Shown here piece by piece: positions 1 to 51,273 of a DNA stretch of 64,000 nt. Numbering within the stretch: the first letter of the stretch is position 1; each line of letters opens with the position of its first letter. Origin of the DNA: Escherichia coli (lineage in GTDB: Bacteria > Pseudomonadota > Gammaproteobacteria > Enterobacterales > Enterobacteriaceae); NCBI RefSeq assembly GCF_029227855.1, contig NZ_CP074356.1; one strand, 5' to 3'. The translations under genes and the position numbers were made by a program. The notes under the pieces are model-generated. The model had not been told where the DNA came from. It ran no database searches and worked only from the letters and a program-made list of their open reading frames with translations.

Positions 1-1151
1 TTCGCCAGCGCGCCCACTATGTCGATATTATTTTTGGGCCGCAAACGCTGCACCGTCTGCCGGAGATGATCAACTCCGTGCGCGGCGACCGCAGCCCGGT
101 TGTAGATATCAGCTTCCCGGAAATCGAGAAGTTTGACCGTCTGCCGGAACCGCGTGCCGAAGGGCCGACCGCGTTTGTCTCCATCATGGAAGGCTGCAAT
201 AAATATTGCACCTACTGCGTAGTGCCTTACACCCGTGGTGAAGAGGTAAGCCGTCCGTCCGACGATATTCTGTTTGAGATCGCCCAGCTTGCGGCTCAGG
301 GCGTGCGTGAAGTCAACCTGCTCGGTCAGAACGTGAACGCCTGGCGTGGTGAAAACTACGACGGCACCACCGGATCGTTTGCCGATCTGCTGCGTCTGGT
401 TGCTGCGATCGACGGGATCGATCGTATTCGCTTTACCACCAGCCATCCGATCGAATTCACCGACGATATCATCGAAGTGTACCGCGACACGCCGGAGCTG
501 GTGAGCTTCCTGCATCTGCCGGTACAGAGCGGTTCCGATCGCATTCTGAACCTGATGGGACGTACCCATACAGCGCTGGAGTACAAAGCGATCATCCGTA
601 AACTGCGTGCGGCGCGTCCGGATATTCAGATCAGTTCTGACTTCATCGTTGGCTTCCCTGGCGAAACCACCGAAGACTTCGAGAAAACGATGAAGCTGAT
701 TGCCGACGTCAATTTCGACATGAGCTACAGCTTTATCTTCTCTGCACGTCCGGGTACGCCAGCCGCCGATATGGTTGATGATGTTCCGGAAGAAGAGAAG
801 AAGCAGCGTCTGTATATTCTACAAGAACGTATTAATCAGCAAGCGATGGCATGGAGCCGCCGGATGCTCGGCACCACCCAGCGTATTCTGGTAGAAGGTA
901 CATCGCGTAAGAGCATCATGGAGCTTTCCGGTCGCACTGAAAATAACCGCGTGGTCAACTTCGAGGGCACACCGGATATGATCGGTAAATTCGTCGATGT
1001 AGAAATTACCGACGTCTACCCGAACTCTCTGCGCGGTAAAGTGGTGCGAACTGAAGATGAAATGGGTCTGCGCGTGGCAGAAACACCGGAATCGGTCATT
1101 GCCCGTACCCGCAAAGAAAACGACCTTGGCGTGGGTTATTATCAGCCATAA
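1..1151 (+). CDS. miaB: tRNA methylthiotransferase MiaB, C-terminal 382 codons (5' end outside window)
   Basis: Frame 3 is open from the window edge ([22 protein letters not shown]...) to TAA 1149-1151, so the track Met at 66 is internal. Radical-SAM CNKYCTYC motif. Sequence recognised as E. coli MiaB. Confidence 0.95.
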
Positions 1152-46003: not shown

Positions 46004-46285
46004 TTACCTTACAACCTTCGTAAGACAACTTTGTGAACTTTGCACCGCCAGCGGCGATAAAAAGTAAAATGGCCCCCTTTCCAGGTGACCGTGTAATCTG
46101 AACTACCCTTTGGTATCTTCAGCGCCTGCCTGCAGGCTGAGGTGTTGCCCTTACAAATGCAACAACGACATGGATTACAACACCCTCATAAACAAAGGGC
46201 AATCACCTGATCTAAGCTCTTACCTATGACAGTGATAGGTTATGCCTTTTACCCGACTTTTGCACTGACTGAAAAGGACAAATTA

Positions 46286-47032
46286 ATGTTAAAAAAGATA
46301 CTTTTACTGGCTCTGCTTCCTGCAATCGCCTTCGCAGAGGAACTTCCTGATCCAGTAAAAGCGATTGAAAAACAGGGTATTACGATCATCAAAACATTCG
46401 ATGCTCCCGGAGGAATGAAAGGTTATCTCGGAAAGTATCAGGATATGGGCGTCACCATCTACCTGACTCCAGATGGTAAGCACGCTATCTCCGGTTACAT
46501 GTACAACGAGAAAGGTGAAAACCTGAGTAACACACTTATCGAAAAAGAAATTTACGCACCAGCCGGACGCGAAATGTGGCAACGGATGGAACAATCCCAC
46601 TGGCTCCTCGACGGTAAAAAAGATGCGCCGGTCATTGTCTACGTCTTCGCCGATCCTTTCTGCCCATATTGTAAACAGTTCTGGCAGCAGGCTCGTCCGT
46701 GGGTAGATTCTGGCAAAGTGCAATTAAGAACATTGTTGGTTGGCGTTATCAAGCCAGAAAGCCCGGCGACAGCAGCGGCAATTCTTGCCGCCAAAGATCC
46801 CGCAAAAACCTGGCAAGAATATGAAGCCTCTGGTGGCAAGCTTAAGCTAAACGTGCCTGCAAACGTAAGTACAGAGCAAATGAAAGTGTTAAGCGATAAC
46901 GAGAAACTGATGGACGATCTGGGGGCAAATGTCACGCCAGCTATCTATTACATGAGTAAGGAAAATACACTGCAACAGGCCGTGGGGTTGCCCGATCAGA
47001 AAACGCTTAATATCATTATGGGGAATAAATAA
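46286..47032 (+). CDS. dsbG: periplasmic thiol:disulfide oxidoreductase DsbG
   Basis: Track ORF starts at 46226. I chose ATG 46286 ([17 protein letters not shown] signal peptide) with SD AAGGA, giving 248 aa. CPYC active site. Confidence 0.93.
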
Positions 47033-47240
47033 AAGATAATTCATGGATGGTTGAACTATATCCCTGCTTTTCAACCATCCTAAAAAAGCATGAATTGCTC
47101 GCTCTGCCCTAAGTGGCTGTGCTATTTTAGTAAAACTTAATCCTGAGTTAAGCAAAAAAACATAATCAATAAAAATATATACGCAAAAAACATTGATTAA
47201 GTGAATATACCATGGAAGAAAAATATAACCGGAGTAGTGT

Positions 47241-48143
47241 ATGGCCAATCTCTACGACTTGAAAAAGTTCGACTTAAATCTTCTTGTCATATTTGAGTGT
47301 ATTTATCAGCATTTAAGCATTAGCAAGGCTGCTGAATCACTATATATCACCCCGTCAGCCGTGAGCCAGTCGTTACAACGCTTACGTGCGCAATTTAATG
47401 ACCCTTTATTCATTCGCTCAGGAAAAGGTATCGCGCCGACGACGACAGGGTTAAATCTGCATCACCATCTTGAGAAAAACCTCAGAGGCCTTGAACAAAC
47501 AATTAATATAGTCAATAAGTCCGAACTAAAGAAAAACTTTATTATCTACGGCCCTCAGCTCATTTCTTGCTCTAATAATAGTATGCTGATCCGCTGCCTA
47601 CGGCAAGATGCCTCTGTCGAGATTGAGTGCCATGATATCCTCATGTCAGCAGAGAATGCTGAAGAACTGTTGGTTCACCGCAAAGCCGATCTGGTGATCA
47701 CCCAAATGCCAGTGATCAGCCGTTCCGTCATTTGCATGCCATTGCATACAATTCGCAATACTCTAATTTGTAGTAATAAGCATCCGCGAATTACTGACAA
47801 TAGCACTTATGAACAAATTATGACAGAAGAGTTCACCCAATTAATATCCAAATCAGCAGGAGTTGATGATATTCAAATGGAAATAGACGAGAAGTTTATG
47901 AATCGCAAAATTTCATTTCGTGGTTCCTCTTTGCTGACAATCATTAATAGCATTGCAGTTACAGATTTACTGGGAATAGTCCCCTATGAACTTTATAACT
48001 CCCACCGTGACTTTCTTAATTTAAAAGAGATAAAACTAGAACATCCGTTACCTTCAATAAAGCTTTACATTTCCTATAATAAATCTTCTTTAAATAATTT
48101 GGTGTTCTCCCGATTTATTGATCGTCTAAATGAGAGTTTTTGA
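47241..48143 (+). CDS. ybdO: LysR-family transcriptional regulator YbdO
   Basis: 300 aa. SD GGAG. N-terminal wHTH (LYITPSAVSQSLQRLR). The gene is visibly AT-rich. Confidence 0.9.
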   Translation: MANLYDLKKFDLNLLVIFECIYQHLSISKAAESLYITPSAVSQSLQRLRAQFNDPLFIRSGKGIAPTTTGLNLHHHLEKNLRGLEQTINIVNKSELKKNFIIYGPQLISCSNNSMLIRCLRQDASVEIECHDILMSAENAEELLVHRKADLVITQMPVISRSVICMPLHTIRNTLICSNKHPRITDNSTYEQIMTEEFTQLISKSAGVDDIQMEIDEKFMNRKISFRGSSLLTIINSIAVTDLLGIVPYELYNSHRDFLNLKEIKLEHPLPSIKLYISYNKSSLNNLVFSRFIDRLNESF

Positions 48144-48289
48144 TATATAACCTCAGACAGCTATTATAACTTTCACCTATTTATTCACAGCACGAATGAA
48201 AAATAAAACACTCTGCTTTTCAGTGTTTACTTTATAATTAACAGTCTTATCTCACTGATCACCCCGTAACGTTCAGAGAGCGTTTTCAG

Positions 48290-49510
48290 ATGTCTATTTA
48301 TAAAATCCCGCTTCCACTGAATATTCTGGAAGCTGCAAAAGAACGTATTACCTGGACACTTAACACCCTACCCCGTGTCTGCGTTTCTTTTTCGGGTGGT
48401 AAAGATTCCGGATTAATGCTGCATCTGACCGCCGAACTTGCCCGACAAATGGGCAAAAAAATTTGTGTTTTATTTATCGACTGGGAAGCTCAGTTCTCTT
48501 GCACCATTAACTATGTTCAGTCCCTGCGCGAGTTGTACACCGATGTCATCGAAGAGTTTTACTGGGTTGCGCTCCCGCTTACAACGCAAAATTCCCTATC
48601 ACAATACCAACCCGAATGGCAGTGCTGGGAACCTGATGTCGAATGGGTACGTCAGCCCCCGCAAGATGCGATAACCGATCCTGACTTTTTCTCCTTTTAC
48701 CAGCCTGGCATGACCTTCGAACAATTTGTGCGTGAGTTTGCCGAATGGTTTTCGCAAAAACGTCCGGCGGCGATGATGATCGGCATCCGTGCGGATGAGT
48801 CCTACAACCGTTTTGTCGCCATCGCCAGTTTAAATAAACAACGTTTTGCCGATGATAAGCCCTGGACTACTGCCGCACCAGGCGGTCATAGCTGGTACAT
48901 ATACCCCATCTACGACTGGAAAGTCGCTGATATCTGGACCTGGTATGCTAGCCATCAACGCCTCTGTAACCCACTGTATAATATAATGTATCAGGCAGGC
49001 GTTCCTCTACGTCATATGCGAATTTGCGAACCTTTTGGTCCGGAACAACGGCAAGGATTATGGCTCTATCACGTTATCGAACCGGATCGCTGGGCTGCTA
49101 TGTGCGCACGAGTCAGCGGGGTAAAAAGTGGCGGCATTTACGCCGGACATGACAACCATTTTTATGGTCATCGGAAAATCCTCAAGCCCGAACATTTAGA
49201 CTGGCAGGAGTATGCATTATTGCTACTCAACAGCATGCCGGAGAAAACAGCTGAGCATTATCGCAATAAAATCGCCATTTATTTGCACTGGTATCAGAAA
49301 AAAGGCATCGAGGTTCCACAAACCCAGCAAGGGGACATTGGCGCGAAAGATATCCCCTCCTGGCGGCGAATATGCAAAGTTTTACTCAATAACGATTACT
49401 GGTGTCGGGCATTATCATTTAGCCCGACCAAAGCGAAGAACTATCAGCGTTATAACGAACGAATAAAAGGAAAACGTCAGGAATGGGGGATACTATGCAA
49501 CAACGATTAA
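48290..49510 (+). CDS. ybdN: PAPS-reductase-like PP-loop ATPase YbdN (IbrA-like)
   Basis: 406 aa. PP-loop SGGKDS within VCVSFSGGKDSGLMLHL. Recognised as YbdN. Confidence 0.9.
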   Translation: MSIYKIPLPLNILEAAKERITWTLNTLPRVCVSFSGGKDSGLMLHLTAELARQMGKKICVLFIDWEAQFSCTINYVQSLRELYTDVIEEFYWVALPLTTQNSLSQYQPEWQCWEPDVEWVRQPPQDAITDPDFFSFYQPGMTFEQFVREFAEWFSQKRPAAMMIGIRADESYNRFVAIASLNKQRFADDKPWTTAAPGGHSWYIYPIYDWKVADIWTWYASHQRLCNPLYNIMYQAGVPLRHMRICEPFGPEQRQGLWLYHVIEPDRWAAMCARVSGVKSGGIYAGHDNHFYGHRKILKPEHLDWQEYALLLLNSMPEKTAEHYRNKIAIYLHWYQKKGIEVPQTQQGDIGAKDIPSWRRICKVLLNNDYWCRALSFSPTKAKNYQRYNERIKGKRQEWGILCNND

Positions 49511-50112
49511 CGCAGGATTTAACCCAATTTCTCGCCAGCTTGCCGGAAGACGATCGCATCAAAGCGATTAATGAAATCCGCATGGCGATCCATCAGGTTA
49601 GCCCCTTTCGAGAAGAGCCAGTGGATTGCGTTCTGTGGGTTAAAAACAGCCAACTTATGCCTAATGATTACAACCCAAACAACGTGGCACCACCCGAAAA
49701 AAAACTGCTGAAAAAATCCATTGAAATAGATGGTTTTACCCAACCCATTGTGGTCACGCATACGGATAAAAATGCCCTGGAAATCGTGGATGGTTTTCAC
49801 CGCCATGAAATTGGTAAAGGCTCATCATCGTTAAAATTACGCTTAAAAGGTTATTTGCCGGTGACCTGTCTGGAAGGTACGCGTAATCAACGCATCGCCG
49901 CGACTATTCGTCATAATCGCGCCCGTGGACGTCACCAAATCACTGCCATGTCAGAAATCGTCCGTGAACTCAGCCAGTTGGGATGGGACGATCATAAAAT
50001 CGGCAAAGAGCTGGGAATGGACAGCGACGAAGTGCTACGCCTGAAGCAAATTAACGGCCTGCAAGAGTTGTTTGCCGACCGTCAATATTCCCGCGCCTGG
50101 ACGGTTAAATAG
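49483..50112 (+). CDS. ybdM: ParB/sulfiredoxin-like nuclease-domain protein YbdM (IbrB-like)
   Basis: 209 aa from ATG 49483. ATG 49495, preceded by GGGGGA-tact, would give 205 aa. ParB/Srx DGxHR-type motif VDGFHRHE. Overlaps the ybdN 3' end by 28 nt (or 16 nt). Confidence 0.88.
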   Translation: MGDTMQQRLTQDLTQFLASLPEDDRIKAINEIRMAIHQVSPFREEPVDCVLWVKNSQLMPNDYNPNNVAPPEKKLLKKSIEIDGFTQPIVVTHTDKNALEIVDGFHRHEIGKGSSSLKLRLKGYLPVTCLEGTRNQRIAATIRHNRARGRHQITAMSEIVRELSQLGWDDHKIGKELGMDSDEVLRLKQINGLQELFADRQYSRAWTVK

Positions 50113-51273
50113 CTAAAGCTGGCGCAGGCGTTCAGCTGCTGCCAGCAACGTCGATTCCTTCTTGGCAAAACAGAGACGAATCAGTTTATGTGGGAAGGGA
50201 TCGGCGCAAAACACCGATAGCGGAATCGCCGCTACGCCGTGCTCCTGCGTCAGCCACTGGCAAAACTCAACGTCATCCAGCGTAGACACGGCGCTGTAAT
50301 CCACCAGCAAAAAGTATGTACCTTCGCACGGTAAAATCTCCAGCCGACTCTCACTTAAGGCATTCACCAGAATATCGCGTTTCTGGCGATAAAAGTCCGG
50401 TAACGCAAGATAATGCTCAGGTTCTGCACGTAGCATATCCGCAAGTGCCAGCTGTGCCGGGGTATTCACCGAAAAGGTCAGATACTGATGTACCTTGCGA
50501 ATTTCGGCACTGATGGGCGCTGGCGCAACGCAATAACCCACTTTCCAGCCGGTCATATGATAGGTCTTGCCAAACGATGACACCGCCACCGCCCGCTCAC
50601 GCAGCTGCGGATGCGCCAGCACGCTGGCATGGCCCTGTTGTGAAAAGTTGATGTGCTCGTAAACTTCATCGCTAATGACAAAAATCTCGTGCCCGGCAAT
50701 TGCCTGCCACAAAGCGGCGAAATCAGCCTGCTGCCAGACAGTTGCACTGGGGTTATGCGGGGTGTTGAGGATCACCAGTCGGGTGCGCTCGCTTAACAAT
50801 GCGGCAAATTCCTGCCAGTCCACGCGAAAATGCGGTGGTTGCAGTGCAATACGTTTCACTATTCCCCCCGAAAGCGCGATGGCGGGCGCGTAACTGTCAT
50901 AGCTGGGATCAAAGCAGATCACTTCATCACCATTGCGCACCAATGCGGTAATCGCTGCATATAACGCTTCCGTCGCCCCTGCCGTTACGGTGATATCACT
51001 ATCGGCATCCGGTTGATAGCCATACAGACGTTCCGTTTTCTGAGCAATCGCCTCGCGCAAGGCCTGCACGCCAGTCATAGGCGCGTATTGGTTTGCCCCC
51101 TGGTCAACATGGTACGCCAGCCGCTCCTGCAAATAGCGCGGACCATCAAAATCAGGAAAGCCTTGCGACAGGTTAATCGCCTGGTGTTGCTGCGCCAGCG
51201 CGCTCATCTGGGTGAAAATAGTGGTGCCAAGTTGTGGAAGTTTGCTTTGTGGAATCAGAGGGTTATTTGTCAT
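50113..51273 (-). CDS. ybdL: methionine-oxo-acid aminotransferase YbdL (class I PLP)
   Basis: 386 aa. PLP-lysine context SFGKTYHMTGWKVGY. Recognised as YbdL. Confidence 0.92.
   Translation of the reverse strand: MTNNPLIPQSKLPQLGTTIFTQMSALAQQHQAINLSQGFPDFDGPRYLQERLAYHVDQGANQYAPMTGVQALREAIAQKTERLYGYQPDADSDITVTAGATEALYAAITALVRNGDEVICFDPSYDSYAPAIALSGGIVKRIALQPPHFRVDWQEFAALLSERTRLVILNTPHNPSATVWQQADFAALWQAIAGHEIFVISDEVYEHINFSQQGHASVLAHPQLRERAVAVSSFGKTYHMTGWKVGYCVAPAPISAEIRKVHQYLTFSVNTPAQLALADMLRAEPEHYLALPDFYRQKRDILVNALSESRLEILPCEGTYFLLVDYSAVSTLDDVEFCQWLTQEHGVAAIPLSVFCADPFPHKLIRLCFAKKESTLLAAAERLRQL

Follow-up and report, generated by a model that had tools for sequence, protein, structure and literature searches.

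The adjacent genes ybdN and ybdM of Escherichia coli form a two-gene module of phage origin, which belongs to the named IbrA/IbrB family. In the Enterobacteriaceae it occupies a fixed, syntenic site and evolves under purifying selection. We tentatively propose that ybdNM encodes a self-contained, sulfur-independent enzyme whose ParB-like subunit would direct an adenylylating one to nucleic acid. The analysis covered a stretch of 64,000 nucleotides of E. coli DNA (contig NZ_CP074356.1), referred to here as the window.

The citR-ybdN-ybdM locus and its control

All three genes of the locus, citR (ybdO), ybdN and ybdM, are already known. RefSeq annotates them as citR, a phosphoadenosine phosphosulfate reductase and an IbrB-like domain-containing protein, respectively. 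The ybdNM pair lies between citR and ybdL, and dsbG is the remaining neighbour in the window. The genes, the motifs SGGKDS, VDGFHRHE and KIGKELGMDSDEVLRLKQ, the 28-nt gene overlap and the AT-rich citR block described in an earlier note on this DNA were all recovered where it had placed them (Table 1). The GC content is 0.388 for citR, 0.473 for ybdN and 0.475 for ybdM, with a value of 0.516 for the whole window.

Table 1. Coordinates of genes, spacers, domains and motifs in the window.
Feature	Nucleotides	Residues	Strand	Remarks
dsbG-citR spacer	47033-47240		+	GC 0.322; citR promoter and 5' leader; H-NS-bound region
citR/ybdO	47241-48143	300 aa	+	ORF as given in the earlier note
citR-ybdN spacer	48144-48289		+	GC 0.342
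ybdN (IbrA family)	48290-49510	406 aa	+	PP-loop ATP-pyrophosphatase domain followed by all-helical DUF3440
YbdN PP-loop ATP-pyrophosphatase domain	48377-48991	~30-234	+	
PP-loop SGGKDS	48392-48409	35-40	+	YbdN, by translation
YbdN DUF3440 domain	48998-49507	~237-406	+	all-helical
ybdN/ybdM overlap	49483-49510		+	28 nt; 16 nt with ATG 49495 as start
ybdM (IbrB family)	49483-50112	209 aa	+	predicted "mini-ParB"
YbdM N-terminal region		N-terminal 45 residues		variable
YbdM ParB/Srx-type domain	49618-49935	~46-151	+	
VDGFHRHE	49786-49809		+	YbdM, by translation
DGFHR	49789-49803	103-107	+	YbdM; counterpart of ParB box II (GERR)
IRHNRARGRH	49906-49935	142-151	+	YbdM family signature, by translation
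YbdM helical tail	49939-50076	~153-198	+	conserved
KIGKELGMDSDEVLRLKQ	49996-50049		+	YbdM HTH-like segment, conserved; by translation

Of 5426 complete E. coli genomes, 5422 contain the region and 5420 carry the chromosomal copy of the pair at its single site; chromosomal ybdNM is syntenic at this fixed site across the Enterobacteriaceae. The exact 28-nt overlap is kept in 19 of 20 orthologous loci of other species, drawn from nine enterobacterial genera; the position of the ybdM start codon inside the end of ybdN suggests translational coupling. Within E. coli, the ω values of ybdN and ybdM are 0.055 and 0.137, respectively.

The citR product is a LysR-type repressor of ybdNM that is itself repressed by H-NS. 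It contains the Pfam domains HTH_1 and LysR_substrate and scores 465.2 bits against the NCBIfam CitR equivalog NF047710 (cut-off 400) over residues 1-294. Both layers of control, which the earlier note had put forward for testing, turn out to be published: CitR represses ybdNM (PMC9068703) and H-NS represses citR (PMC4720273). Deletion of citR raises ybdN by log2 5.5 and ybdM by log2 2.5, and the sulfate-assimilation genes cysDNC, cysJI and cysAWU rise alongside them (PMC9068703). This concomitant rise could point to a sulfur-nucleotide substrate and weighs against our preferred reading. A CitR ChIP-exo peak is located upstream of citR (PMC9068703); a published transcription start of citR is placed 107 bp before the ATG, and H-NS-dependent elements are described both upstream and downstream (PMC4720273). 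Right after dsbG, a perfect 11-nt inverted repeat spans positions 47045-47080. The citR-ybdN spacer falls within a block that differs by 20-30% among E. coli lineages. It contains an imperfect inverted repeat at 48195-48239 (18-nt arms, 78% complementary), which is a candidate operator. A sigma70-like promoter match is found at 48140-48167 (TTGATA-16-TATTAT, 10/12), in a region where the number of such matches does not exceed the shuffled expectation.

Domain architecture and conserved motifs of YbdN and YbdM

YbdN contains two Pfam domains above their cut-offs, PAPS_reduct (PF01507, E 1e-14) and DUF3440 (PF11922, E 3e-32), and matches phrog_2302 with an E value of 1e-76. Its PP-loop fold is of the PAPS-reductase type and, among solved structures, most resembles FMN adenylyltransferase, APS/PAPS reductases and CysD, with only ~170 of the 406 residues aligning. 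The substrates of these nearest relatives in fold are small molecules (FMN, sulfate, APS/PAPS), an observation that also runs counter to the preferred reading. Conservation was assessed in 84 diverse homologues, one representative per 50%-identity cluster. SGGKDS is 91-97% conserved, along with D64, E66, R167, E170, S171, R174, D209, D214, N227 and Y230; altogether, the PP-loop and ~30 further residues are near-invariant. YbdN has an intact ATP-pyrophosphatase site of the PAPS-reductase/CysD/FMN-adenylyltransferase branch, accompanied by a family-specific helical domain. The near-invariance of these residues, together with the low ω, argues for catalytic competence. No cysteine is invariant among the 84 representatives, the most frequent being C362 (48%) and C246 (46%). 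In the redundant set of 361 sequences C246 reaches 83% and is missing from the other 17%, including whole subclades.

YbdN shares the PP-loop, GxRxxES..R and DW...D.W with CysH/APS reductase, with CysD, the small subunit of ATP sulfurylase, and with eukaryotic FMN adenylyltransferase, the PAPS domain of FAD synthase, but it scores far under every one of these family cut-offs, and its partner is ParB-like, whereas that of CysD or CysH is CysN or thioredoxin. These differences bear on the database name, according to which YbdN is the phosphoadenosine phosphosulfate reductase of sulfate assimilation. Apart from the RefSeq product name, this assignment can draw on the PAPS_reduct domain, but against the CysH models YbdN reaches just 34.1 bits (TIGR02057, cut-off 254.2) and 33.3 bits (NF002537, cut-off 154). 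Where YbdN has the canonical SGGKDS, CysH has a degenerate loop, which we take to be SFGIQA, and this contrast argues for an ATP-type rather than a PAPS-type site in YbdN. CysH carries its catalytic cysteine in a C-terminal tail of the ECGLH type; YbdN has no such tail, and its family has no invariant cysteine. An additional DUF3440 domain of 170 residues and the obligate pairing with a ParB-like gene likewise do not fit a CysH-type enzyme. Sulfate reduction is accordingly very unlikely to be the chemistry of ybdNM, and the database name has next to no chance of being correct; one of the two outcomes that the earlier note had named as refuting its view, a YbdN acting as an ordinary reductase of sulfate assimilation, is thus decided in its favour.

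YbdM matches phrog_2159 with an E value of 4.5e-69. Taken alone, it scores 24.6 bits against Pfam ParB_N, just below the gathering cut-off of 26.3, whereas 65 of 71 IbrB family members match this domain; seven of the 71 match GmrSD_N. The IbrB family profile matches ParB (4umk) and Noc (7nfu) with an E value of 1e-6 and the ParB-fold kinases SbnI and SerK with E values of 0.002 and 0.2. In the profile alignment, DGFHR falls on GERR of ParB/Noc and NxYNPN on NPxQPR. Among 136 YbdM homologues, D103, G104, H106 and R107 are invariant. In the IRHNRARGRH signature, N145, A147 and G149 are invariant, and conservation reaches 97% or more at R143, H144, R148 and H151; by position, this segment is the putative counterpart of ParB box III (ENxQR). 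The tail of YbdM is probably HTH-like: G178, M179, E183, R186 and Q189 are 97-100% conserved in the 136 homologues, and an AF2 model of low confidence (pLDDT 52) places helices at residues 170-177 and 181-198. Searches of the YbdM family against HTH families returned scattered weak matches only.

Judged from these motifs, YbdM is a "mini-ParB": the protein is short and of ParB type, and it retains counterparts of the ParB motifs that are conserved in its family. The IbrB profile aligns with the N-terminal domain of ParB and Noc, and the HTH-like segment follows at the expected spacing. YbdM differs from the CTP-dependent DNA clamps and regulators of the ParB family (ParB/Spo0J, Noc, KorB, VirB) in its box II (DGFHRHE instead of GERRxRA), in its box III (RHNRARG, with His-Asn in place of the Glu-Asn of ENxQR), in having an enzyme as its obligate partner, and in its C-terminus. 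YbdM stops at residue 209, soon after the helical tail, and no C-terminal dimerisation domain is present; against TIGR00180 it scores 15.8 bits (cut-off 58.45). Neither a ParA gene nor a parS-like repeat was found near ybdM in the window. The DGxHR-type box II and the GmrSD_N matches would tie IbrB to ParB relatives that sense DNA modification.

The resemblance to DndC and DndB proposed in the earlier note survives at the level of superfamilies only. In both systems a ParB/Srx-type DGxHR protein stands beside a PAPS-reductase-type PP-loop enzyme with SGGKDS. However, YbdN scores 21.7 bits against DndC, with a cut-off of 290.4 for TIGR03183 and a PADLOC match (E 2e-5) restricted to a partial stretch. 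In contrast to DndC, the YbdN family has no family-wide conserved cysteine or Fe-S ligand set, and it carries the extra DUF3440 domain. YbdM gave no match to DndB models of NCBIfam and PADLOC at E 0.01, and its DGFHR is related, but not identical, to DGQHR of DndB. No DndA/IscS, DndD, DndE, DndFGH or restriction partner was found in the window, in 83 viral/phage loci or among 148 flanking genes. The match to BrxP of type 4 BREX is confined to the PP-loop (18.4 bits, E 1e-4 in PADLOC), and the window contains no BREX genes (PglZ, BrxC, BrxL) near ybdN.

Pairing, distribution and phage context

The IbrA and IbrB genes are almost always inherited as a pair. Of 160 loci from phages and bacteria that could be evaluated, 159 (83/83 viral/phage, 76/77 bacterial) have an IbrB homologue adjoining the IbrA homologue on the same strand; both gene orders occur, and overlaps are frequent. 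This pairing and the conserved overlap bear out the coupled unit described in the earlier note, which had also named beforehand the failure of the two genes to co-occur outside E. coli as the observation that would count against it. Phage records with a match number 224 for YbdN and 226 for YbdM, and their host profiles are nearly identical. The homology to IbrA/IbrB that had been asserted is upheld by the PHROG matches and by the RefSeq and JGI names, JGI listing a YbdN-type protein as 'predicted PAPS sulfurtransferase'.

As in IbrAB, a gene for a PAPS_reduct and DUF3440 protein is followed in ybdNM by an overlapping IbrB-like ParB gene; unlike IbrAB, which resides on mobile islands, ybdNM is a fixed chromosomal copy. 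According to secondary citations and the name of a SEED subsystem, IbrAB from a prophage island of E. coli ECOR-9 acts as a pair of co-activators that switches on prophage eib genes, which encode immunoglobulin-binding proteins. No biochemical activity is assigned to members of the IbrA/IbrB family in the literature that we found, consistent with what had been noted earlier. Compared with YbdN, the accessory IbrAB-type copies of E. coli, Klebsiella, Citrobacter and Proteus show 54-57% identity. Those of E. coli lie in virulence islands and on plasmids; one immediately precedes a PerC-family activator gene and has aerobactin genes close by, and another adjoins iro/fec genes.

In phages, the pair is surrounded by replication and recombination genes (Erf, NinG, DnaB, SNF2). 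It is carried by Flavobacterium phage FCL-2, reported to be lytic, adjoins the terminase gene in mycobacteriophage Athena, and in some temperate phages sits between the lysis and lysogeny modules. Most phage IbrAB loci carry a further domain of no recognised kind. No third partner is constant among the 83 viral/phage loci or the 148 flanking genes, viral and bacterial; a gene for a small GNAT acyltransferase adjoins IbrA in 26 of 163 loci (about one in six). No desulfurase gene was found near YbdN/IbrA in the window, in the viral/phage loci or in the flanking-gene survey. Bacillus phage M2 has the gene order Dam, IbrA-like, methyltransferase, ParB-like. Methyltransferases account for three of the 148 flanking genes, a rarity that tells against the preferred reading. 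A fusion of a PAPS domain to Dam in a Vibrio phage has been shown by experiment to allow escape from Dnd restriction (10.1101/2021.05.05.442762). As in the IbrA-like region of phage M2, a PAPS-reductase-type domain is there beside or fused to a Dam-type methyltransferase. The Vibrio PAPS domain is short, however, neither DUF3440 nor a ParB partner is reported for that protein, and E. coli ybdNM lacks a methyltransferase neighbour.

Possible activities of the YbdN-YbdM pair

In our tentative reading, YbdN and YbdM would be two subunits of one phage-derived enzyme, in which YbdM would bind DNA, and probably a nucleotide too, and bring YbdN to its target. YbdN would transfer AMP from ATP and thereby activate a site in a nucleic acid, with DNA the likeliest candidate, and the activated group would then be replaced or be retained as a covalent mark. 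DNA as the target is suggested by the ParB/Noc match, the DGxHR-type box II and GmrSD_N matches of IbrB, the replication and recombination context in phages, the methyltransferases of phage M2, the Vibrio PAPS-Dam protein and the GNAT neighbours. Because no cysteine is invariant and no desulfurase gene lies nearby, the chemistry probably requires neither a cysteine of the enzyme nor the relay of sulfur. Activation of eib by IbrAB would be a downstream result of the mark or of YbdM binding, and the enterobacterial module would have been domesticated at its fixed site, near-silent under CitR.

The only experimental phenotype reported for the family, eib activation, is regulatory and as such goes against an enzymatic mark. 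It fits better with YbdM/IbrB being a VirB/KorB-like DNA binder with a nucleotide switch that relieves H-NS-type silencing of acquired genes, YbdN/IbrA serving as ATP-dependent loader or cofactor supplier and no covalent mark being made. Such a co-activator or anti-silencer, which we regard as somewhat unlikely, would agree with the ParB N-terminal motifs retained in YbdM, the accessory copies near the PerC-family activator and the aerobactin and iro/fec genes, the H-NS-controlled block around chromosomal ybdNM, and the position between lysis and lysogeny modules. However, it leaves the constant attachment of a fully conserved catalytic PP-loop enzyme unexplained, YbdM has a conserved His in place of the box III glutamate and lacks the dimerisation domain that ParB clamps need, and prophage activation is irrelevant where the pair is common in reportedly lytic phages such as FCL-2 or adjoins terminase as in Athena. 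We consider a role in anti-phage defence or conflict, for instance as an abortive-infection pair or as the modification component of a restriction system that is incomplete, markedly less probable. In its favour are weak superfamily-level matches to DndC and BrxP in PADLOC and the repeated occurrence of ParB/Srx domains in systems of conflict (PMC10853773), and phage IbrAB copies could be anti-defence genes. Against it, no family-level PADLOC model matched ybdNM, and no nuclease or effector partner was found in the 83 viral/phage loci or among the 148 flanking genes. Moreover, the pair is unlike the genes of defence islands, since 5420 of the 5426 E. coli genomes have it at one site that is fixed and syntenic, and the chromosomal copy is kept silent. 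A core and silent copy would be unusual for a DNA-marking system as well. Of the modification or conflict function advanced in the earlier note, nucleic-acid modification is plausible; a conflict role finds no positive evidence, and the chromosomal copy is a fixed, family-wide pair rather than an island gene.

Two further readings keep an active YbdN but change its substrate, and both appear improbable to us. YbdN could adenylate a base of tRNA or of another RNA, as TilS, TtuA and ThiI do, and so alter the decoding and expression of AT-rich foreign genes, with YbdM as an accessory or regulatory subunit; a translational effect could account for raised Eib protein levels, and the GNAT neighbour is reminiscent of the ATP-dependent acetylation of tRNA. 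The obligate partner, however, belongs to a family known for binding DNA and nucleotides, no THUMP, PUA, TRAM or other RNA-binding domain was detected, and tRNA enzymes are not among the closest structural matches of YbdN. Alternatively, YbdN could pass AMP to, or act on, sulfate, APS/PAPS or a phosphorylated metabolite, with YbdM supplying a kinase or NTPase function of the ParB/Srx type as its subunit (compare CysN for CysD, SerK and sulfiredoxin) and a metabolite or signal as the product. The best folds of YbdN, the SbnI and SerK matches of the IbrB profile, the sulfurtransferase name and the response of the cys genes to loss of CitR all point in this direction. Nevertheless, IbrB fits ParB/Noc (1e-6) far better than the kinases (0.002-0.5) and retains the conserved HTH-like tail, phage copies sit among genes of DNA replication and recombination rather than of metabolism, and the cys induction may be indirect, arising from the medium or from CitR itself.

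The earlier note saw in ybdNM a candidate for an undescribed activity, a fair statement of the case as far as the activity goes. Locus and family are already described and are no discovery of this analysis; the undescribed part is the activity of the pair, which can be tested.

Genes, motifs and chromosomal setting of the locus

The open reading frames of the window bear out the citR (ybdO)-ybdN-ybdM coordinates claimed in the earlier note, and translation places the motifs that it had read in YbdN and YbdM at the quoted positions. The ybdN and ybdM frames overlap by 28 nt, or by 16 nt if ATG 49495 is taken as the ybdM start, as had also been claimed. The described AT-richness was recovered as GC contents of 0.322 and 0.342 in the two spacers and 0.388 in citR, against 0.516 for the window; ybdN and ybdM have 0.47 each. 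Flanked by dsbG (+ strand) and the convergent ybdL (- strand), the region was found in 5422 of 5426 complete E. coli genomes, and RefSeq names its genes citR, ybdN and ybdM.

Features of the locus in the window and examples of accessory components (L-numbers denote fetched viral or bacterial loci with IbrA/IbrB homologues)
Feature	Location	Strand	Basis or remark
citR/ybdO	47241-48143	+	ORF list
ybdN	48290-49510	+	ORF list
ybdM	49483-50112	+	ORF list
ybdL	50113-51273	-	convergent neighbour downstream of ybdM
SGGKDS	48392-48409	+	translation, in ybdN
VDGFHRHE	49786-49809	+	translation, in ybdM
KIGKELGMDSDEVLRLKQ	49996-50049	+	translation, in ybdM
GNAT gene beside IbrA	L010 7190-7591; L080 7291-7704; L155 7230-7640		examples
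GNAT gene beside IbrA	L157-L162		just upstream of IbrA
~130-residue domain	L037 5561-5983; L056 1623-2768; 55 other loci (L005-L084, L143)		

Position 50112 is the last of the ybdM stop codon and 50113 the first of the ybdL stop codon, leaving no intergenic base; no terminator lies between the two stops, so that transcripts running past ybdNM would be antisense to ybdL. On the other side of the locus, starting 13 nt past the dsbG stop codon, a perfect 11-nt inverted repeat (GGATGGTTGAA / TTCAACCATCC, arms 14 nt apart) occupies 47045-47080 and could act as a terminator or bind a protein. The mechanical dsbG frame (46226-47032) encodes 268 aa from a start at 46226; the RefSeq DsbG of a close strain has 248 aa, corresponding to a start at about 46286.

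CitR passed the NCBIfam equivalog for the repressor CitR with 465 bits (cut-off 400). The order ahpC-(dsbG)-(citR)-ybdN-ybdM with convergent ybdL is shared by Escherichia, Citrobacter, Enterobacter, Klebsiella, Kluyvera, Yokenella, Phytobacter and Scandinavium; Trabulsiella has the upstream part, and a ybdL match was not found there. A CitR homologue precedes ybdNM in 15 of 20 loci from other species, and a truncated one does so in the E. coli locus compared. Within E. coli, ω is 0.055 for ybdN and 0.137 for ybdM. Published work shows that ybdO is bound and repressed by H-NS (PMC4720273) and that CitR binds upstream of citR-ybdNM, its deletion raising ybdN 45-fold and ybdM about 6-fold and inducing the cys-regulon (PMC9068703). 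Because of this synteny, the ω values and the repression by H-NS and CitR, we conclude that ybdNM is an old, domesticated and tightly repressed copy, which rules against a recent island.

The citR gene and both of its flanking spacers (window 47101-48300) exist in E. coli as two deeply diverged allele blocks. About 3560 genomes share 95-99% identity with the window over this block, and about 1790 only 60-90%. Compared with NZ_CP013658.1, identity falls to 68-84% near 47101, and the start codon of ybdN marks an abrupt end to this fall. The identity of CitR to its counterpart in that genome is 88.7% for the protein and 79.2% for the nucleotide sequence (dS about 2.5); for YbdN and YbdM it is 97.8% and 98.6%. 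That ybdO has diversified under H-NS was described earlier by Higashi et al. 2016 (PMC4720273).

Sequence and structural features of YbdN and YbdM

YbdN consists of a PAPS_reduct domain (residues 30-234) followed from residue 237 by DUF3440, and the IbrA family to which it belongs is modest in size, a search of 1.84 billion representatives yielding 218 clusters at E<1e-30. When 84 diverse full-length members are compared, the near-invariant positions comprise the PP-loop S35-G-G-K-D-S40; D64, E66, R167, E170, S171 and R174; D209, W210, D214, W216, N227 and Y230; a W/R set within an insertion (W110, W113, W119, R121); and R244, W268, R274, W305 and D369 in DUF3440. The canonical SGGxDS loop is that of PP-loop superfamily members which cleave ATP to AMP and PPi. 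The YbdN loop aligns with a degenerate SFGIQA in E. coli CysH, an alignment that is supportive only.

No cysteine of YbdN is conserved family-wide: the best, C362 and C246, occur in 48% and 46% of representatives, and C246 reaches 83% in a larger redundant set, yet is replaced in whole subclades. A metal or redox cluster formed by C112, C246, C362 and C372 was considered and is kept in the closer subfamily; whole subclades with PACC, CCAC and PA patterns rule it out as a universal catalytic feature. The cluster could nevertheless be catalytic in the E. coli subclade.

Among solved structures, neither YbdN nor YbdM has a sequence relative. By structural comparison YbdN matched the PAPS domain of human FAD synthase (15.2), APS/PAPS reductases (13.4-14.8), CysD (13.5), yeast Fad1 (12.9), TilS (11.8) and TtuA (11.0); for the helical DUF3440 half a structural relative was not detected. 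YbdN scores far below the curated cut-offs for CysH, CysD and DndC, in agreement with the view that it is not a conventional sulfate-assimilation reductase, and a literal PAPS reductase is extremely improbable. Collectively, these data show that YbdN is an enzyme conserved under selection, that its PP-loop is of the ATP type and that no thiol is conserved family-wide. From these sequence features we infer that its reaction is the adenylylation of a substrate, and not a reduction or a Dnd-type transfer of sulfur.

The partner protein YbdM alone gave 24.6 bits against ParB_N, just below the gathering score of 26.3, and among 71 IbrB family members ParB_N was matched by 65 and GmrSD_N by 7. The AF2 model of YbdM, built on 26 close orthologues, was unusable (pLDDT 52), and a profile search of PDB sequences was used instead. 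The IbrB profile matched ParB 4umk (E 1e-6) and Noc 7nfu (E 2e-6), with NxYNPN over ParB NPxQPR and DGFHR over GERR; the ParB-fold kinases SbnI and SerK scored much lower. In 136 diverse homologues the invariant or near-invariant residues are N61-x-Y-N-P-N66; E72, L75, L76, S79, G84 and P88; D103-G-F-H-R107; R143-H-N-x-A-R-G-x-H151; and G178, M179, E183, R186, Q189, G192, F197, S203 and W206. The conserved tail, helical in the poor AF2 model, looks like the HTH of ParB proteins. YbdM ends at residue 209 and therefore has no dimerisation domain; it is not one of the ParB partition proteins.

The homology to IbrA/IbrB put forward in the earlier note holds for every family feature that could be tested. 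The proposed likeness to DndC/DndB stands at the level of the superfamily, but fails for model cut-offs, cysteines and gene neighbourhood. PADLOC returned weak superfamily matches of YbdN to DndC (E 2e-5) and to BrxP (E 1e-4), which YbdN is not; known defence families yielded nothing beyond such matches, and a role of the pair in defence is quite improbable.

Pairing with IbrB and variable neighbours

YbdN and YbdM match phage protein families very strongly (phrog_2302, E 1e-76, and phrog_2159, E 4.5e-69). Annotated phage genomes contain 224 records matching YbdN and 226 matching YbdM, with near-identical host profiles (Flavobacterium 90/90, Mycobacterium 60/60, Streptococcus 21/21, Arthrobacter 12/12, Bacillus 8/8). 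We fetched 80 IMG/VR loci with an IbrA homologue, 3 phage records and 80 loci from bacterial genomes. A same-strand IbrB adjoins IbrA in all 83 viral and phage loci, mostly abutting or overlapping and in either gene order, and in 76 of the 80 bacterial ones; the four exceptions are three contig ends and one true orphan. IbrA thus occurs with IbrB in 159 of 160 evaluable loci, and the co-occurrence outside E. coli that the earlier note had set as a test is borne out: the pair is an obligate unit well beyond this species. A scan of viral contigs with a single protein found just one, near-identical, locus.

Genes resembling ybdN or ybdM, at 78-90% identity, are present in some short records labelled viral or 'phage', namely the 5.7-kb IMG/VR contig IMGVR_UViG_2695420564_000009 (L001) and the GenBank records OR851112.1 and OR845499.1 ('Salmonella phage S.Kent 1-2-1', 2.8 kb; 'Escherichia phage ECO95 1-6-1', 2.3 kb). 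These records resemble pieces of chromosomes or islands, and not genomes of phages.

Neighbours other than IbrB vary, the next commonest family occurring in 12 of 83 viral and phage loci. Those that recur serve replication and recombination in phages (Erf, NinG, DnaB, SNF2). Among 148 immediately flanking genes the SNF2 helicase was the commonest Pfam family with only 8, followed by DNA methylase and terminase with 3 each, and a constant third component was rejected. A DNA-packaging role, prompted by the mycobacteriophage Athena pair that abuts the large terminase gene, was likewise discarded, terminase being recurrent in 7 of 83 viral loci and an immediate flank in those 3 cases. Informative IbrA fusions were not found: long forms proved to be extensions in which a domain was not detected, chimaeric predictions or ORF artefacts, the last occurring in high-GC DNA.

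Two optional components do recur. A small GNAT acetyltransferase (125-140 aa) directly adjoins IbrA in 26 of 163 loci, including Bacteroides/Phocaeicola, Sphingomonas, Azoarcus and Streptomyces, and all 6 members tested exceed the Pfam cut-off; in Pseudomonas and Achromobacter the match is confined to long artefactual ORFs in the IbrA-IbrB gap. A conserved domain of ~130 residues (W.C..GFY...SCEH.LTN..NR.AW.GQA), without a Pfam or PHROG match, is present in 56 of 83 viral loci and 1 of 80 bacterial ones; it either extends the C-terminus of IbrB or has a gene of its own, placed between IbrB and IbrA. Both components are missing from E. coli ybdNM. In a goat-colon Clostridia MAG (L140, 2346-3356) the IbrB homologue carries a C-terminal extension of ~170 residues that weakly resembles the DNA-binding domain of O6-methylguanine methyltransferase (PF01035, E 0.0036, below the cut-off), a single case that could be due to chance.

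Divergent IbrAB-type copies (54-57% identity) lie at other sites in Klebsiella, Citrobacter and Proteus. The accessory genome of E. coli, too, often carries extra divergent pairs, with 7927 matching places in 5488 records, of which 81 are on plasmids. One (NZ_CP027552.1; L166, 6947-9150) immediately precedes the gene of a PerC-family regulator on an island that also contains aerobactin genes; another (L167, 2447-4308) lies between fecIR and iroBCD on the virulence-type plasmid NZ_CP181473.1.

Possible functions of the pair

The claim that the pair lacks an assigned biochemical activity agrees with our literature search, which found no study of YbdN, YbdM, IbrA, IbrB or DUF3440 biochemistry. 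The locus, the family name, the regulators and the idea that YbdN is not a PAPS reductase are already known from databases and papers; new here are the quantified pairing in both gene orders, the lack of a universal cysteine, the mini-ParB motif map and the two accessory components.

The obligate pairing, the ParB-type partner, the phage replication-region context, the occasional DNA methyltransferase and GNAT partners, and the published finding that a PAPS-Dam fusion of a phage overcomes Dnd restriction (10.1101/2021.05.05.442762) lead us to propose, tentatively and at somewhat less than an even chance, that YbdN and YbdM form one enzyme acting on nucleic acid independently of sulfur. YbdM would be the DNA- and nucleotide-binding targeting subunit and YbdN the adenylylating catalytic subunit, with DNA as the most likely substrate. 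The closest solved folds of YbdN and the induction of the cys-regulon in the citR mutant would also fit small-molecule adenylyl or sulfur-nucleotide chemistry, which we consider unlikely; modification of tRNA by the pair is improbable to the same degree. A ParB-type anti-silencer or co-activator, by comparison, is doubtful rather than improbable: it fits the virulence-island contexts of the IbrAB-type copies and the only phenotype given for the pair in secondary citations, the switching on of prophage genes by IbrAB.

The nucleic-acid enzyme could, in a more specific and possible form about which we are rather sceptical, represent an uncharacterised class of two-subunit marking enzymes. A mini-ParB nucleotide switch would deliver a PP-loop subunit resembling CysD or FMN adenylyltransferase to DNA, where adenylylation-driven substitution would write a new covalent mark, sometimes elaborated by the GNAT partner. 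The mark would serve phages as a means against restriction or silencing, and enterobacteria would have domesticated IbrA/IbrB as a tightly repressed epigenetic switch. Residues K38, D39, D64, E66 and R167 of YbdN and H106, R107 and N145 of YbdM are the targets for mutation.

Hundreds of phage genomes, with hosts such as Flavobacterium, Mycobacterium, Streptococcus, Bacillus and Arthrobacter, carry relatives of ybdNM, which are also found in virulence islands and plasmids. Phage and gut-microbiome papers take the 'PAPS reductase' label as denoting a sulfur auxiliary metabolic gene, and for the IbrA family this label is misleading. Should the pair prove to be an anti-silencer of the ParB type that works with an enzyme, the VirB/KorB paradigm would be widened; if it writes a new DNA or RNA mark, this would be new chemistry for phage-host epigenetics and would explain the activation of prophage genes by IbrAB.
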